IMG/VR virus record: IMGVR_UViG_2740892258_000006
DNA from: a virus
Lineage: Duplodnaviria > Heunggongvirae > Uroviricota > Caudoviricetes
Length of the DNA stretch: 16,486 bases
Direction: 5' to 3' (one strand)
Shown: positions 6,969 through 12,662 of the stretch, in pieces
How positions within the stretch are numbered: position 1 is the first letter of the stretch
Layout: each line of letters begins with the position of its first letter
Translations under genes and position numbers: made by a program
The notes under the pieces: generated by a model
Database searches by the model: none
The model's input: only the letters and a program-made list of their open reading frames with translations
What the model was told of the DNA's origin: nothing

Positions 6969-7080
6969 GATGAAGGCACCCGCTGCTTTATCGATGCCGA
7001 TAATATGCGTGCCGTCAGTGTGCTGATGAAGGCACCCGCTGCTTTATCGATGCCGATAATATGCGTGCCGTCAGTGTGCT
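6969..7080. repeat. Perfect tandem duplication, 2 x 56 bp (6969-7024 = 7025-7080)
   Basis: Identical copies read directly from sequence. Confidence 0.95.
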
Positions 7081-7204
7081 TAACCTGGGTACTATTGATG
7101 AGCCTGGTCACGCAGATAACACCGCCACTCTCAAACTGAAAAAGACAGCACCGTTCTCTGCTCTGTTGTCTGTTAATGGCGAGCGTCATTCCCAGAAGTC
7201 ACTG

Positions 7205-7316
7205 GCAGAATGGATTGAAGACTGGGCCGACTACCTTGTGGGCTTTGATGCTAATGGTGAGCAGAATGGATTGAAGACTGGGCCGACTACCTTGTGGGCT
7301 TTGATGCTAATGGTGA
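7205..7316. repeat. Perfect tandem duplication, 2 x 56 bp (7205-7260 = 7261-7316)
   Basis: Identical copies read directly from sequence. Confidence 0.95.
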
Positions 7317-7980
7317 TGCCATTCAGGCAACAAAAGCGGCTGCGGCAGTCCGTAAAATCACGATTGAAGCAAACCAGACCGCTGATTTTGAAGACAATGA
7401 CTTCAGCGGCAAACGCTCCCTGATGGAGTCTGTCGAAGCGAAGACCAAAGATATTATGCCAGTGGCATTTGAATTTAAATGCGTTCCGTTTGAAGGCCTG
7501 AAAGAACGTCCGTTTAAATTACGCCTCAGCATTATCACTGGCGATCGTCCTGTACTGGTTCTGCGCATTATTCAGCTGGAAGCAGTGCAGGAAGAAATGG
7601 CTAACGAATTTCGTGATCTGCTTGTTGAGAAATTCAAGGACAGCAAAGTAGAAACCTTTATTGGTACTTTTACCGCCTGATTTCATTACTGCAAATGCCC
7701 CTGCGGGGGCATTTATGGAAACGTAATTGACTCAATAATCGCCGGATGGTGAGGGCTTTCTTTTACCAGAATTCAGCGCGGTGCAGCGCATATACGTGGA
7801 GAACAAAATGTCATTTATTAAAACTTTTTCCGGGAAGCATTTTTATTATGACAGGATAAATAAAGACGACATCGTTATTAACGATATCGCGGTTTCTCTT
7901 TCAAATATCTGTCGCTTTGCAGGACATCTTTCACATTTCTACAGCGTCGCCCAACATGCGGTGCTTTGCAGCCAACTGGT

Positions 7981-8092
7981 ACCGCAGGAATTTGCTTTTG
8001 AAGCGTTAATGCATGATGCAACAGAAGCGTATTGCCACCGCAGGAATTTGCTTTTGAAGCGTTAATGCATGATGCAACAGAAGCGTATTGCC
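7981..8092. repeat. Perfect tandem duplication, 2 x 56 bp (7981-8036 = 8037-8092)
   Basis: Identical copies read directly from sequence. Confidence 0.95.
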
Positions 8093-8222
8093 AGGACATC
8101 CCCGCGCCGCTGAAACGCCTTCTTCCTGACTATAAACGGATGGAAGAAAAAATAGACGCCGTAATCCGTGAGAAATACGGGTTACCCCCGGTTATGAGTA
8201 CGCCCGTGAAATATGCCGATCT

Positions 8223-8334
8223 CATCATGCTGGCAACCGAACGCCGCGATCTCGGGCTTGATGATGGCTCTTTCTGGCCATCATGCTGGCAACCGAACGC
8301 CGCGATCTCGGGCTTGATGATGGCTCTTTCTGGC
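8223..8334. repeat. Perfect tandem duplication, 2 x 56 bp (8223-8278 = 8279-8334)
   Basis: Identical copies read directly from sequence. Confidence 0.95.
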
Positions 8335-8552
8335 CCGTACTGGAAGGTATCCCGGCAACAGAGATGTTCAAAGTTATTCCACTGTCGCCAGGCCATACCT
8401 ATGGGATGTTTATGGAACGCTTTAAAGAGTTAACTGAGTCGTAAAAATCAGCACGTACGAATTCAAACTCTGCCATAAAAGAACATATAAGTAATTTATT
8501 AACATATAGATATAGGTTATATTACAAATTGAAAAATTATTGGAGAGCAACA

Positions 8553-9419
8553 ATGAATCAAAATCCATTCTCATTCTATGACTTTCTTGGATATTTAATA
8601 CCAGGTGGTTTTTTTATCCTATTAATGTATTTCTGTGGTTTGACATTCGATCTAGATATTGTTATTGACTTAAGTGAATTGCTCAGAGGTCAAAGTCAAA
8701 TCTTTGGCATTTTGAACTACGCTTCAATAGTTATTATATCTTATATAGCTGGACATTTTATTTCTATCACGTCAGCATTTTTTATCGAAAAATACATGAA
8801 TAAAGAATTAGGATATCCTTCCAAATATCTATTTAAAAAATTGATAGATACCTCAGAAAGCATTTGTAGCCCATCATGCGATGAGAGAAGCGCTGATAAA
8901 AAAACAAAAATAAAGAATCGCATAATCAAATGCGTATTATGTCCAATAATACTATGGGATTTTATAACACAAAAACTATGTTATTCTCAATCTCTACCAT
9001 TTCATTTAGCTAATACAACATGGTTAATGATCAAAGAAGGTTATGAGAAAAAGTTCATAACAAATCGCCAATTATTACAAGATAAAAACGGACTTGATGA
9101 TGATCTCTTCAGATTGGCATATCATTATGTTTATGAGTTTTCAAAACAACATCAAACAAAAATTCAAAACTATGTTGCATTATATGGTTTTTGCAGAAAC
9201 ATATGTTTAATCTTTATAATTTCATTTTGGGTATCAGTTCCAACCTTTATTTATCGATTATGTACTCATAGTGATTATCTTTATAGTTTACTTTCAATAA
9301 TGCTTAGCTTTTTCTTCGTCTATGTTTTCTATGTTGGTTTTGTTAAATTTTATAGAAGATATACTTTAGAAGTATTAATGGCATTTGCTGTACTTCAAAG
9401 TAACGACACTATTCGTTAA
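8553..9419 (+). CDS. AT-rich multi-pass membrane protein (4-5 predicted TM helices), moron of unknown function
   Basis: ATG 8553 with GGAGA 7 nt upstream; hydrophobic segments FLGYLIPGGFFILLMYF, IFGILNYASIVIISYIAGHFI, ICLIFIISFWVSVPTFIY, LLSIMLSFFFVYVFYVGFV; strongly AT-rich versus neighbours. Confidence 0.6.
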   Translation: MNQNPFSFYDFLGYLIPGGFFILLMYFCGLTFDLDIVIDLSELLRGQSQIFGILNYASIVIISYIAGHFISITSAFFIEKYMNKELGYPSKYLFKKLIDTSESICSPSCDERSADKKTKIKNRIIKCVLCPIILWDFITQKLCYSQSLPFHLANTTWLMIKEGYEKKFITNRQLLQDKNGLDDDLFRLAYHYVYEFSKQHQTKIQNYVALYGFCRNICLIFIISFWVSVPTFIYRLCTHSDYLYSLLSIMLSFFFVYVFYVGFVKFYRRYTLEVLMAFAVLQSNDTIR

Positions 9420-9460
9420 TAATGTTGCTCCCGTGTGCAGACGGGATAATGGAGAAACGT

Positions 9461-9667
9461 ATGCTGAACCTCGATTGTGTTCCTATCTCAACTTATTGCA
9501 AAGAAACTGGCGAAACTCCTGAAGCAATAAACAAACGTGTACAGCGCGGTGTTTGGCGTGAAGGTGTTCAGGTTTTAAAGGTTGAAGGCGTTAAGGAGAG
9601 GTGGATTGATCTTAGTGAGGTTGCAAAATGGGCCAGACAAAACTGCTCAAACTACCGCGCGGCGTAA
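9461..9667 (+). CDS. xis: Excisionase-like protein (Xis)
   Basis: Small basic protein directly upstream of and overlapping int; start at ATG 9461 (GGAG 6 nt upstream) within ORF 9422..9667. Confidence 0.6.
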   Translation: MLNLDCVPISTYCKETGETPEAINKRVQRGVWREGVQVLKVEGVKERWIDLSEVAKWARQNCSNYRAA

Positions 9668-10800
9668 CAATCAGGAAACACCACCAGGGAGAAACGATCA
9701 ATATAACTTTCACCTACAAAGGAGTTAGATGTCGTGAGCCGCTTTCCAATCTGGAAGTAACACCAAAGAACATTAAATACGCCGAGCGTACACTCGGCGA
9801 AATCCATAATAAGATCGAAAGGGGAACATTCATTTATGCAGAATATTTTCCCCGTTCTGCTCGTTTGAAAATTTTTGGTAATGCTGCTGCAAGCAAAACG
9901 GTAAAGATGTACCTGGACGAATATCTTGAAATCTGCGAAACAAGAAAACTTTCACCCTCTACGATTGGTGGCTATAAAAAATGCCGTAGTGCGTTAGCCT
10001 CACTTCACATTTGCCCTGCAAGTGAATTAACACCAGCAACCCTGAAAGCGTGGATTCAAAGCCAGAAAACAACCTTAAAAACCATTCGCAACCAGTTATC
10101 TTTCCTACGGTCAGCACTTGATGAAGCCGTGACCGATGGGGTACTTCAAATTAACCCCGTATCGTTAGTAACAGCTTCGCGCTACCAAAGTGATAAGTCA
10201 GAAGCAGAAAGCAGCTATGTGGTTGATCCGCTATCACCAGCAGAAGTTGATGCATTACTAGCAGCAGCCGGAAACAAACAATGGGAAAATCTGTTCCGGT
10301 TCGCCATACATACAGGCCTGCGTAGTTCTGAATTATGTGCCCTACGATGGCATGATATCGACTTTGTTGGAAAAACAGCCCATGTTCAGAGCGCAAGTGT
10401 TGTCGGAGTTATCAAAGGAACAAAGACAAAAGCCGGTACCCGTAAAGTTGAACTGACTGAAGAAGCAATGTTGGCGTTGATAAACCAGAAGCCATTTACA
10501 TTCATGAAGGATGCTACTGTCTTTGAAGATCCAAAGACCAATAAACCCTGGGCAAGTGCTGATGCAATTAGGAAAAAAGCATGGGTGCCAACATTGCGAA
10601 AAGCAGGTATTCGTTACAGAAACCCATATCAAACCAGGCATACATTCGCCACCAGCCATATCAGCCGGGGAGCAAACCTGTTTTGGCTTGCGGCTCAAAT
10701 GGGCCATAAAGGGCCTGAAATGTTATTCAGGCACTATGGACAATACTTGAAAGAGTATGATGGGAGGGCAAGTATCAAGGATAAAAAGGCTTTATTTTAA
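9628..10800 (+). CDS. int: Tyrosine site-specific integrase (lambda-type with N-terminal arm-binding domain)
   Basis: 390 aa; catalytic-domain signatures HTGLRSSELCALRW (Arg), RHTFATSH (His-x-x-Arg), GHKGPEMLFRHYGQY (His...Tyr). Confidence 0.9.
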   Translation: MGQTKLLKLPRGVTIRKHHQGETINITFTYKGVRCREPLSNLEVTPKNIKYAERTLGEIHNKIERGTFIYAEYFPRSARLKIFGNAAASKTVKMYLDEYLEICETRKLSPSTIGGYKKCRSALASLHICPASELTPATLKAWIQSQKTTLKTIRNQLSFLRSALDEAVTDGVLQINPVSLVTASRYQSDKSEAESSYVVDPLSPAEVDALLAAAGNKQWENLFRFAIHTGLRSSELCALRWHDIDFVGKTAHVQSASVVGVIKGTKTKAGTRKVELTEEAMLALINQKPFTFMKDATVFEDPKTNKPWASADAIRKKAWVPTLRKAGIRYRNPYQTRHTFATSHISRGANLFWLAAQMGHKGPEMLFRHYGQYLKEYDGRASIKDKKALF

Positions 10801-11409
10801 GTCATTATGCCAATCGTCTACTGTTTGAAACCAAATTTTTAACCTTTGCATAAAGGTACGATCCTTTTTGGGAGGGTGGTACCTTTGAAAAGAAGTATGT
10901 AACGCTTCGATAACTCCCATACAAGCATCAATTACTTCTTGTGCTTTAACCGGGCGATCGGCATCTGAAAGCTTGTGAGCGACCTCACAATCCAGAGTTG
11001 CTTTCTCTAGTACAGATGAGAACACCTCGTCAGGTATATACAGTCCTCTGCTTTCCAAAATGCAAATCAGTTTGGAAACTTGTTGAGCTTTAGCCAAGAT
11101 AGTTAACAAGTATGAAACAGAAGCCTTTGTTCTATCCTTTTGCAACCTTAACAATCGATGCTTTGATGCTCTAATTTTAGGTTGAGTTGTCTGACTGAGC
11201 CAATAGTTAGAAGAAATATCAGAAATTTCAATAACTAACTTTGAAATAGCATCAATAATTGATTTCGATTCAGAACGTGTCGCCAGTTTTACAGAATTAT
11301 TGTACGCAACTCGCCATCCAATGAAAACTAAGCAGACGCTAACTACTGTGATACACCACGAATACTGTCCTATTTGTGCTACTAATGACATTGGTTCCGT
11401 ACTGATCAA
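10792..11409 (-). CDS. Cargo operon gene C: membrane-anchored protein (one N-terminal TM helix, helical soluble domain), unknown function
   Basis: TTG start at 11409 with AAGAGG overlapping upstream stop (alternative ATG 11391); TM segment YSWCITVVSVCLVFIGWRVAY; 3' end overlaps int by 9 nt. Confidence 0.6.
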   Translation of the reverse strand: MISTEPMSLVAQIGQYSWCITVVSVCLVFIGWRVAYNNSVKLATRSESKSIIDAISKLVIEISDISSNYWLSQTTQPKIRASKHRLLRLQKDRTKASVSYLLTILAKAQQVSKLICILESRGLYIPDEVFSSVLEKATLDCEVAHKLSDADRPVKAQEVIDACMGVIEALHTSFQRYHPPKKDRTFMQRLKIWFQTVDDWHNDLK

Positions 11410-11419
11410 CTATCGCCTC

Positions 11420-11746
11420 TTATACTCTTTCTGGTTGTGCTAAATCAATAAATTTATCAATCTGTTCTTTGTAGAACGGAACATCACTTTTTATAATCAA
11501 ACGTGCTTTAACGTTGGCTTTAGGTATCCCTTCCTTACGGATGAGACCTCCAAACGCCTCTTCTAAGAAAGAGGAACCAACACCCAGTGCTATACCGCGA
11601 AAATCAACCACAATCTCCTGTTCAGTACCCTTCAGCGCAGGCACCAAAAACTCTCTACGAAATCTTTCCGCACTGTGTGGGCTATCCGTTGTGTAACGTC
11701 CGAAAGGTGTTCTGGAGAACTCCTTCGCTATGACGATATTTCTCAT
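11420..11746 (-). CDS. Cargo operon gene B: small STAS-like protein (DUF4325-like, tentative)
   Basis: 108 aa; AGGAG 8 nt upstream of ATG 11746; motif EIVVDFRGIALGVGSSFLEEAFGGLI resembles STAS-like DUF4325 as I recall it; 4-nt gap to gene A. Confidence 0.6.
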   Translation of the reverse strand: MRNIVIAKEFSRTPFGRYTTDSPHSAERFRREFLVPALKGTEQEIVVDFRGIALGVGSSFLEEAFGGLIRKEGIPKANVKARLIIKSDVPFYKEQIDKFIDLAQPERV

Positions 11747-11750
11747 AAAA

Positions 11751-12662
11751 TCATCTCCTGGGAACCAGCGACCATTGTAGTAAAGTACCCGGTATGTACT
11801 CAGCTAGCTTCTCACATCGAGGACTACTGTCATTAGAATTATAGCTATAACGAGCCCTTCCTGTTAGTATCAGAAGTGTCTCATTATCCTCACAACCTGC
11901 CCCAATAGGTCTCTTGATATCTTCAGAGCCATTTCCCCGTCCGGAACCAACAAAGCGGGATTCCCCTACTAACATAGCTCTTTCCACAGAAGATACTTCG
12001 TTTTGAATGCTATGACCATCACCATTAGGCACGAAACTTCTATAAATCCCCAATCCAAGGTCACAAACGATAAAAACGACTTTATTTTCATCACGATTGA
12101 ACCAAGCGCACTGCCACCATCGTTTACCTTTGAGAAGCTGAATATCTGACTCGAACCCCTCATCTTCATACGCATGATGAGAAACATTGAGCAAAGCTTC
12201 ACTAATCGCTGTCAGCAGTAAGCCTAACTGTTCATTATTAAGCAGAGCACTTTTCTGCAGCATGAGTACTGTTTCAACAATATGCTCGTAAGGTTCGACA
12301 GCTGACTGAAAGTATCGTTCCTCCCTCGTAAGTGCATTCAGTTTCTCTTCTGTGCCAGCAAGCAAAGCACGAGCAAGTCCAGTACCAACGATCCATCTAT
12401 GCCCAGATGGGTTATCATCCTTTTTAGGCCATTTAAAACGTATAAAATTAGGGTCCCGGGTTAAAAATTGAGCTCTATTTACTATGGCAAAGAACAGTAC
12501 CGATGCCGCAGCTGAGGCAAATTTTACCTTGGACAAATCAACTATAACTCGACCTTTATTTTTTACTCCAATCGATTCAATCGAGTTGATGAAGTTCAAT
12601 GTCCCAGCCCTAGAATCATCTGAGTAAATGCAAAATTTGCTTGGGGGTACCAGTATGGTCAT
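11751..12662 (-). CDS. Cargo operon gene A: GHKL (histidine-kinase-like) ATPase with unassigned N-terminal domain
   Basis: 303 aa; Bergerat-fold motifs in the C-terminal half: N-box EALLNVSHHA, G1 CDLGLGI, G2 GSGRGNG. Confidence 0.65.
   Translation of the reverse strand: MTILVPPSKFCIYSDDSRAGTLNFINSIESIGVKNKGRVIVDLSKVKFASAAASVLFFAIVNRAQFLTRDPNFIRFKWPKKDDNPSGHRWIVGTGLARALLAGTEEKLNALTREERYFQSAVEPYEHIVETVLMLQKSALLNNEQLGLLLTAISEALLNVSHHAYEDEGFESDIQLLKGKRWWQCAWFNRDENKVVFIVCDLGLGIYRSFVPNGDGHSIQNEVSSVERAMLVGESRFVGSGRGNGSEDIKRPIGAGCEDNETLLILTGRARYSYNSNDSSPRCEKLAEYIPGTLLQWSLVPRR

Follow-up and report, generated by a model that had tools for sequence, protein, structure and literature searches.

What does a lone, AT-rich membrane-protein gene do directly upstream of the excisionase and integrase genes of a prophage? 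The question is raised by the gene at 8553-9419 in IMG/VR virus record IMGVR_UViG_2740892258_000006 (Caudoviricetes), of which we analysed the whole stretch of 16,486 nucleotides (nt; hereafter the window). The element is a lambdoid prophage of a B2-type E. coli, with the gene order yfdP, yfdQ, yfdR, the studied gene, xis, int, three minus-strand genes, and glaH. The initial annotation had called the studied gene an AT-rich multi-pass membrane moron directly upstream of xis-int, which is borne out by its guanine-plus-cytosine (GC) content of 28%, by four transmembrane (TM) segments, and by the swap seen at this site in a sibling prophage of E. coli 042. Its description as alone between the yfdR-like gene and xis, with a strong ribosome-binding site (RBS), also stands: the neighbours were confirmed, and the RBS is GGAGAG at 8542-8547, with 7 nt from the end of GGAG to the ATG. 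The statement that no family could be recognised has to be revised, as the protein is a member of PHROG 12528 and of a multi-phylum family that appears remotely related to Csx27 of type VI-B CRISPR systems; it is also a homologue of protein 2 of "system #3", a cassette of P2-like phages (see below).

The open reading frame (ORF) spans 8529-9419 on the plus strand, starting from a TTG, and an internal ATG at 8553 gives a protein of 288 amino acids (aa). This is RefSeq WP_001075212.1 of UTI89-type E. coli. Because the N-terminus M-x-Q-N-P-F-S is common to all homologues and RefSeq annotates the identical start, we take 8553 as the true start. The gene is real and under purifying selection: at its base composition (GC at third codon positions, GC3, is 21%) a stop is expected every ~12 codons and the probability of 288 consecutive sense codons is ~2.6e-11, and the ratio of nonsynonymous to synonymous substitution rates (dN/dS) is 0.19 against the 85% allele and 0.23 against the 78% allele. 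The gene was found in 205 of 5426 complete E. coli genomes (~4%), and is identical in 176 of them.

The protein family and its relation to Csx27

The profile of PHROG 12528, which has no annotated function, aligns with the whole protein (E=8e-174; residues 1-288 on profile positions 1-288 of 288). A word-indexed search returned 593 homologues from Escherichia, Salmonella, Shigella, Citrobacter, Klebsiella, Enterobacter, Cronobacter, and Hafnia, every named one of them "hypothetical"; an exhaustive search of 50%-identity cluster representatives gave 659 homologues at E<=1e-3 (369 at E<=1e-10), nearly all of them 260-310 aa long. Genome loci of the family were found in Gammaproteobacteria, Betaproteobacteria, Desulfobacterota-type metagenome-assembled genomes, Bacteroidota, Bacillota, Anaerolineales, Acidobacteria, Gemmatimonadota, Opitutia, and Sphaerochaeta. 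The studied protein has no domain match in Pfam, and in NCBIfam it has a sub-threshold match to Csx27 and none to an enzyme or transporter.

The relation to Csx27 emerged from comparison with the PADLOC models (5027 models, v2). The Csx27 model matches the studied protein with E=1.4e-5 (residues 6-268 on profile positions 4-188 of 206), and tm_4, a second type VI-B model, matches with E=1.3e-3; the NCBIfam model CAS_Csx27 (NF040557) aligns to residues 5-43 with 14.9 bits (E=0.02), below its curated cut-off of 65. Among 143 family members, 97 match PADLOC Csx27 (best E 2.2e-10), 29 match tm_4 (best E 1.6e-6), and 22 match CAS_Csx27 (best E 2e-6). The match to Csx27 was present in eight out of ten members inspected singly and was always collinear, with the N-terminal motif on profile positions 4-20 and, where the match extends, the C-terminal half on positions ~73-189. 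We conclude from these profile alignments that the family is likely a remote, collinear homologue of Csx27 with a central domain longer by ~85 residues; both the collinear profile similarity and the four TM helices expected of the Csx27-like superfamily are found in it. The tm_4 model is perhaps a paired alias of Csx27, since a Csx28 protein that we recovered (see below) matches both "Csx28" and "tm_HEPN". The only other PADLOC match reaching 1e-3 was to the candidate PDC-M48A (best 6.7e-4); matches to PDC-S47, PprPIWI, and ZorB were weaker than 1e-3 (PprPIWI and ZorB with E=0.057, in one member each), and PADLOC gave no match to a validated defence component (Rex, Kiwa, Zorya, CBASS/Pycsar TM effectors, PD-T4/T7/lambda).

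Csx27 itself (type VI-B1, Bergeyella zoohelcum) is, like the studied protein, a small inner-membrane protein with four predicted TM helices and the N-terminal motif, and three Csx27 models align collinearly. Unlike the 201-aa B. zoohelcum protein (PMC6538845), the studied protein has 288 aa, and its gene lies not beside cas13b or an array but within a prophage, in a species that has no type VI systems. We therefore rejected the assignment to Csx27 sensu stricto, given the score below the curated cut-off and the lack of a cas13b or CRISPR context; no CRISPR-like or tandem repeats were found around the studied gene, whose neighbours are yfdR, xis, and int. Smargon et al. saw no csx27 outside VI-B loci (bioRxiv 10.1101/092577). 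The work of Makarova et al. 2019, in the form summarised in PMC7642515 and PMC11662929, speaks of an "expansive" Csx27 family and a predicted single-stranded DNA channel.

We also looked at type VI-B loci themselves. A degenerate type VI-B repeat pattern retrieved 15 genuine CRISPR arrays from metagenome contigs, with 66-nt periodicity, several of them with Cas13b-sized genes; one of the loci encodes Csx28 (L183, 604-1149). No Csx27-like gene, by family motif or model match, was found in these VI-B repeat loci or in five further Cas13b neighbourhoods, in keeping with a published remark on the inconsistent presence of csx27. One Cas13b locus (L190) has, two genes upstream of cas13b, a gene for a four-transmembrane protein of 264 aa that is unrelated.

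The initial annotation had counted four to five hydrophobic helices in the 288-aa protein, and hydropathy gives just this picture, with four TM-length segments (~13-35, 50-78, 207-232, and 243-267) and a shorter hydrophobic or amphipathic stretch at 123-140. An AlphaFold2 run on the 143-sequence family alignment produced an all-helical model with four TM helices (predicted local distance difference test, pLDDT, 89.2; predicted template-modelling score, pTM, 0.88), with helices at 8-27, 34-43, 45-86, 116-128, 130-139, 150-168, 185-196, 198-238, and 242-287. By these extents TM2, TM3, and TM4 would overshoot the bilayer and bundle with the central helices near the membrane. Family-wide net charge is +6.9 for the central domain, +1.8 for the C-tail, +0.5 for the N-terminus, -1.0 for the TM1-TM2 loop, and ~0 for the TM3-TM4 turn; since this distribution obeys the positive-inside rule, both termini and the central domain should be cytoplasmic. 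The protein is thus predicted to be a four-pass inner-membrane protein with a basic cytoplasmic helical domain of ~125 residues between TM2 and TM3.

Although family members share just ~30-35% identity overall, single residues are strongly conserved. Y64, G67, E79, R215, and K265 are invariant in the 143 members, and P5, F6, S7, Y9, D10, F11, L12, G13, Y14, P17, G18, H68, S74, Y88, P89, S90, P131, H191, H200, N206-G212, F263, F266, E273, and M276 are at least 90% conserved. In the N-terminal signature NPFSFYDFLGYLIPG, which is part of every Csx27 model match (profile positions 4-20), 12 of the 15 positions reach this level and N4 is present in 87%. The cytoplasmic domain (79-206) bears the invariant E79 together with the conserved YPS (88-90), P131, D184, R187, H191, E195, H200, K203, and N206, and has two hypervariable loops (aa 95-118 and 169-182). 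All invariant and near-invariant residues lie at cytoplasmic helix ends or in the cytoplasmic domain, whereas the periplasmic loops vary freely. Close enterobacterial alleles differ mainly in aa 84-130, 169-182, and 226-250; for the last of these segments the ratio of nonsynonymous to synonymous polymorphism (pN/pS) is ~1.1 against the 78% alleles, versus 0.05-0.12 for conserved segments, with small counts. It is speculation that the variable periplasmic turn and the cytoplasmic loops set specificity.

Comparison with known structures gave no significant relative: a PDB profile search returned nothing better than E=0.11 (the S1 region of the IP3 receptor, not significant), and the best Foldseek matches had E=0.4 against PDB and E=0.3 against BFVD. 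Homology to a housekeeping transporter or to a structural phage protein, the result that by the initial annotation would have spoken against its reading, was found in none of the Pfam, PDB profile, and Foldseek searches. Stator subunits (MotA/PomA/ExbB/ZorA) resemble the studied protein in having four TM helices, both termini inside, and, from TM2 to TM3, a large domain in the cytoplasm; unlike them, the studied gene has no MotB/ZorB-like partner. We rejected a stator reading on Foldseek values (E 0.6-2.7, probability at most 0.25, TM-score ~0.2) and because there is no trace of the partner. The motif patterns of PAP2, CAAX protease, HD, and ICMT/PEMT proteins were compared by eye, and the order of the conserved residues fits none of them.

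Cassette borders and genomic settings

The borders of the mobile unit were drawn from the E. coli 042 sibling prophage, with which homology breaks off at the yfdR stop (8439) and returns at 9430. The sibling encodes an identical xis protein and has a yfdR homologue and an int region with nucleotide identities of ~81% and ~96%; two small unrelated ORFs (120 and 71 aa) replace the studied gene. The interval 8440-9429 is, by this comparison, a putative horizontally mobile single-gene accessory cassette ("moron") of ~1 kb. Its GC content is 28.2%, as against 47.4% (7000-8439) and 44.3% (9430-10800) in the flanks. The same deficit recurs across phyla: in 72 of 73 loci the flanks are richer in GC than the gene, the median difference being 9 points and the largest 28 (in Pseudomonas), which we read as a likely signature of recurrent horizontal transfer, to which the amino-acid composition of a membrane protein contributes. 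No Rfam match or tRNA was found in the window, and at neither border of the cassette did we see meaningful repeats, direct or inverted.

Alleles of the cassette also seem to recombine inside the gene, since one 78% allele is a mosaic relative to 8353-9536 of the window: it is 98-100% identical over the yfdR 3′ end, the leader, and the opening ~150 nt of the reading frame, and thereafter has 50-95% nucleotide identity per 60-nt interval, mostly 57-82%. The ~50%-identity alleles, from Enterobacter-type prophages, have in their leader a conserved element GATAAACT...CGTTTATAATAT with a perfect TATAAT, ~60-35 nt before the gene, which could be the cassette's own promoter in these alleles.

In enterobacterial lambdoid loci (from IMG/VR and genome contigs) the homologue is always directly upstream of a small excisionase-type ORF (69-118 aa), and an integrase gene (330-401 aa) then follows in all but the dusA-region type. 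This placement was seen in at least six enterobacterial prophage backbones, which differ in the genes upstream (yfdQ-yfdR, a ParB-like 340-aa gene, and others) and include three types of excisionase (phrog_2917, TorI/PyocinActivator-like, and DUF4224) and two classes of integrase (Arm-DNA-bind_2 at 390 aa, and a class of ~336 aa). The isolated Klebsiella phages P7641 and Kp488x-3 have the same arrangement upstream of xis-int. An E. coli prophage beside zur/dinF/lexA has a 78% allele with a TorI/PyocinActivator-like excisionase and no adjacent integrase; at this prophage end, minus-strand cargo follows, including a SocA_Panacea (antitoxin-type) protein, which makes another accessory cluster.

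A second setting is found in P2-like E. coli phages, where a 280-aa homologue lies between the genes for the portal gpQ and the replication endonuclease gpA. In these loci a DUF4760 gene (165 aa, one TM segment) always lies 39 nt before the homologue, and a ParM/StbA partition module with Plasmid_stab_B is usually beside it; for example, the homologue of an Escherichia phage Entero_P88-like genome lies in such a locus (PV468777.1, 5464-6843). The gpA-gpQ interval is an anti-phage hotspot of P2-like phages, and the home of old and tin (Rousset et al. 2022, PMC9122126). Table S5B of that study lists system #3, "DUF4760", at 1102 of 18150 loci (~6%), which makes it the third most common cassette, and describes its protein 2 as "4 TM" (PMC9122126). 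BLASTP aligns this protein 2 with the studied protein at 42% identity over the full length (E=2e-64), and all motifs are shared. Both are phage-borne accessory cargo in E. coli; system #3 differs in having DUF4760 upstream, a partition neighbour, and the gpA-gpQ slot, whereas here a yfdR-like gene lies upstream and the slot is the lambdoid one before xis-int. By phmmer, DUF4760 was found at only nine P2-type loci, and was absent from the lambdoid loci and from 78 other bacterial genome loci.

Those 78 loci are varied in content. BLAST clustering of the five neighbours on either side found no family in more than four loci, and thus no conserved partner. The immediate neighbours fall into 122 Pfam families in 145 proteins, with Phage_integrase at the top (4), a few glycosyltransferases, and Methylase_S (2); the next neighbours out fall into 112 Pfam families in 130 proteins, many of them housekeeping. 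PADLOC on the immediate neighbours picked out components of type I restriction-modification or of MADS in just two loci each. Makarova and co-workers are said to have named, in 2019, natural-transformation components, ubiquitin-system multidomain proteins, and WYL-HTH proteins as partners of the Csx27 family; such partners are absent from the top 25 Pfam families among the first and second neighbours of the 78 loci, and the studied gene differs from the wider Csx27 family in having no link to natural-transformation, ubiquitin-like, or WYL genes. The studied protein would work without a dedicated partner gene.

Candidate functions

We tentatively propose that the gene encodes a stand-alone phage-borne exclusion or defence factor in the competition between mobile elements, a reading that we consider a genuine possibility, if still somewhat short of an even call. 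A role in conflict is suggested because the gene is mobile and constrained, the protein has a basic, membrane-proximal cytoplasmic surface, the family occupies phage accessory slots that include an anti-phage-rich hotspot, and its sole named relative is a CRISPR accessory protein. Exclusion or abortive infection, the kind of role suggested in the initial annotation, is plausible on this circumstantial support, to which the patchy low-GC distribution and the single-gene nature of the module add. The protein would sit in the inner membrane, probably as an oligomer, and act via its strictly conserved, positively charged cytoplasmic face; it might interfere with incoming phage DNA or with the entry apparatus at the membrane, or it might open a pore once infection has been sensed, so that membrane energetics collapse. 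We only infer the timing of its expression, its oligomeric state, its target, and any anti-phage activity.

Membrane proteins are common as defence effectors (PMC9122126), and a conceptual precedent is SNIPE (PD-lambda-1), a constitutively membrane-bound single protein with a cytoplasmic functional part, which, from the cytoplasmic side, attacks the DNA of phages where it is injected (PMC13190303). SNIPE has an unrelated sequence, with one TM segment, DUF4041, and a nuclease domain of GIY-YIG type, whereas no nuclease fold is detectable in the studied protein. Classical superinfection-exclusion proteins (P22 SieA, T4 Imm/Sp, HK97 gp15, and lactococcal Sie2009/Ltp) are likewise small phage membrane proteins near the lysogeny or integration module, but they have no detectable homology to the studied protein and a narrow taxonomic range, whereas the studied family spans many phyla and has its conserved face in the cytoplasm.

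A number of observations weigh against a defence role. Chromosomal neighbourhoods outside phages are heterogeneous and largely housekeeping, and are not classic defence islands. System #3 appears in Table S5B only and was not among the cloned constructs, and the gpA-gpQ hotspot also carries non-defence cargo, with a partition system in about a quarter of P2-like phages (PMC9122126); system #3 itself often co-occurs with the partition system in the hotspot. The matches to Csx27 models are of modest strength (1e-4 to 1e-10), and the effect of Csx27 on Cas13b interference is a reduction, not an increase, of up to 1e5-fold, seen with heterologous Cas13b too (Smargon et al., bioRxiv 10.1101/092577). 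A cytoplasmic surface conserved across phyla fits more readily with a universal ligand than with a phage protein that evolves fast. Consensus scans found neither a sigma-70 site of at least 9/12 in the leader (an 8/12 candidate, TTTATT-17-TATATT, can be seen by eye) nor an intrinsic terminator after the stop of the gene; the small hairpin where homology with 042 resumes is not followed by a T-run and is thus not an intrinsic terminator. The gene may therefore be expressed only via the early-left operon, on induction, which may set it apart from a classical lysogen-expressed exclusion gene.

The early-left orientation, without a detected promoter or terminator of its own, would also fit an immunity modulator or counter-defence protein that dampens or gates another immune effector or membrane-acting system, of the host or of a competing element, and so aids the phage during induction or infection instead of shielding the lysogen, and lambdoid phages place anti-defence genes (lambda ral and gam) in such an early-left position. 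Here the up to 1e5-fold repression by Csx27, heterologous Cas13b included, is a precedent, and Csx27 is listed with anti-CRISPRs (PMC6538845). We nevertheless find counter-defence rather improbable: E. coli is without a type VI system, no partner-like gene is conserved nearby, the family is widespread in non-phage chromosomes of many phyla, and the P2-like slot is known for lysogen-expressed exclusion genes. A role in the phage life cycle, tied to integration and excision or to induction (the timing of excision, lysis, or host shut-off), is very unlikely in our view; all enterobacterial lambdoid loci examined, across xis and int families, have the gene 2-45 nt upstream of that for the excisionase, and in one case directly upstream of int, a fixed place that such a role would explain, but the P2-like homologue lies in the gpA-gpQ hotspot, far from int and cox, a recombinase gene is immediately adjacent in just four of the 78 loci of other phyla, and the 042 sibling with the same xis-int is entirely without the gene.

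The protein could also be a membrane enzyme or transporter outside any conflict, working at the inner leaflet on a lipid, a precursor of the envelope, or a small molecule, and carried as lysogenic-conversion cargo. Residues of 74-100% conservation (D10, Y64, H68, E79, S90, D184, H191, E195, H200, K203, N206, Y207, R215, K265, and E273) cluster at the cytoplasmic interface in a way that resembles a catalytic or metal site, and several non-enteric loci lie amid glycosyltransferase, epimerase, and other polysaccharide genes, with many housekeeping neighbours besides. The absence of any Pfam or NCBIfam enzyme or transporter match, the restriction of the polysaccharide association to a handful of the 78 loci, and an extremely patchy, low-GC, phage-hotspot distribution that is unusual for metabolic functions make this reading unlikely. 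Within the exclusion proposal, a more specific version has the protein as an abortive-infection pore, a latent channel whose cytoplasmic domain senses infection and which kills or arrests the cell like RexB or Csx28. It would suit a lone gene for four TM helices and a cytoplasmic bundle; membrane effectors of known systems are thought to act in this way (PMC9122126), and Csx28, the other VI-B accessory protein, is an octameric pore (PMC12669027). PADLOC found no homology to RexB, Csx28, or other pore effectors, however, there is no sensor partner, and Csx27 was neither toxic nor enhancing in the original work (bioRxiv 10.1101/092577), so that we regard the pore as quite improbable. RexB of lambda resembles the studied protein as a prophage-encoded four-pass inner-membrane protein and candidate channel, but has no sequence or profile similarity to it. 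RexB has 144 aa, needs RexA, and is without a large cytoplasmic domain.

What was already known of the gene amounts to a "hypothetical protein", a PHROG, and an unexamined row of a supplementary table, while the wider Csx27 family has been discussed computationally; in the literature we found nothing on WP_001075212, "Csx27-like", or DUF4760 function, and the DefensePredictor supplements contained none of the accession numbers searched. Three things appear to be new, namely that three unknowns are one family, its tie to Csx27, and its cassette behaviour before xis-int across many backbones. One family thereby accounts for a moron that is common among lambdoid prophages, for PHROG 12528, and for the cassette ranked third by frequency in the P2 hotspot. 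On a wider and rather doubtful view, Csx27-like four-TM proteins would be a pan-bacterial, self-sufficient module that gates nucleic acid or an infection signal at the cytoplasmic face of the inner membrane, the Csx27 branch having been co-opted by type VI-B systems and another branch being spread by lambdoid and P2-like phages as a one-gene cassette for immunity or immunity tuning. Csx27 has been without a known mechanism since 2017 and its host organisms are awkward; the E. coli prophage relative, larger and very well conserved, offers a tractable genetic model for the family, and if the module view is true it could reveal what Csx27 does. Phage exclusion, if true, would amount to a new mechanism of membrane immunity that takes a single gene, has an unsolved fold, and is distributed over multiple phyla; if there is no exclusion, the case would urge caution against calling every hotspot or int-proximal membrane gene defence.

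Feature coordinates and the surrounding prophage

Table 1. Coordinates, in the window, of the studied gene, its predicted protein segments, its cassette, and the neighbouring genes.
Feature	Position	Strand	Basis
Putative AT-rich swappable cassette: 113-bp leader and gene	8440..9429	+	
AT-rich leader with RBS GGAGAG (8542-8547); candidate promoter region	8440..8552	+	
Coding sequence, 288 aa, predicted Csx27-like four-pass inner-membrane protein (WP_001075212.1; PHROG 12528)	8553..9419	+	
N-terminal signature motif NPFSFYDFLGYLIPG (aa 4-18), predicted cytoplasmic start of TM1	8562..8606	+	
TM1 (aa 8-27)	8574..8633	+	hydropathy, AlphaFold2
TM2 (aa 45-78); invariant Y64 and G67, near-invariant H68 and S74 towards the predicted cytoplasmic end	8685..8786	+	
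Basic, predicted cytoplasmic helical domain (aa 79-206), with hydrophobic hairpin 116-139	8787..9170	+	
TM3 (aa 207-238), opening with conserved YVALYGF.R (invariant R215)	9171..9266	+	
Predicted periplasmic TM3-TM4 turn and adjoining helix ends (aa 226-250), most allele-variable segment	9228..9302	+	
TM4 (aa 242-267)	9276..9353	+	hydropathy, AlphaFold2
C-terminal, predicted cytoplasmic motif F.KFYRR..LE..M (aa 263-276; invariant K265)	9339..9380	+	
Small hairpin CCCGT-N6-ACGGG where 042 homology resumes	9430..9445	+	
yfdR-like HD-domain 5′-deoxynucleotidase gene, upstream neighbour; broken by 56-nt duplications at 7970/8026 and 8223/8279	7781..8444	+	
xis, excisionase, phrog_2917 (E=8.3e-45), downstream neighbour; RefSeq coordinates	9461..9667	+	
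Integrase, Arm-DNA-bind_2 and Phage_integrase	9628..10800	+	

The 5′ half of the window seems to have assembly problems. Seven head-to-tail duplications, exact or nearly so, occur between 1 and 8334, and of these six measure 56 nt and one measures 50 nt (at 1555/1611, 1885/1941, 4239/4289, 6965/7021, 7205/7261, 7970/8026, and 8223/8279), and relative to UTI89 the same part has four deletions (185, 145, 755, and 640 bp). The duplications frameshift yfdQ, yfdR, and other prophage genes; together with the deletions they look like stitching artefacts, of contigs or unitigs joined with k-mer overlaps retained. From 8279 to its end the window is collinear with UTI89 at 99.99%, and the studied gene, 3′ of the last junction, is unaffected.

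Downstream of the studied gene, the xis and int frames share 40 nt (9628-9667); an 81-aa ORF from 9422 exceeds the match to the excisionase family (residues 10-81), and RefSeq places the xis start at 9461. A three-gene AT-rich cluster lies on the minus strand at 10792-12662, between int and glaH (~13523), and seems to be inside the prophage because its 205-aa ORF overlaps the end of int. Besides this 205-aa protein (phrog_30059), the cluster encodes a STAS-like DUF4325 protein of 108 aa and a protein of 303 aa (phrog_3364) that weakly matches HATPase_c_2; PADLOC gave no match for any of the three. At this site E. coli 042 carries a gene for an AAA ATPase, after the closely related int (~96% nucleotide identity), and we therefore take the site to be a probable second slot for variable cargo. 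The three genes could form an uncharacterised system of the partner-switching type.

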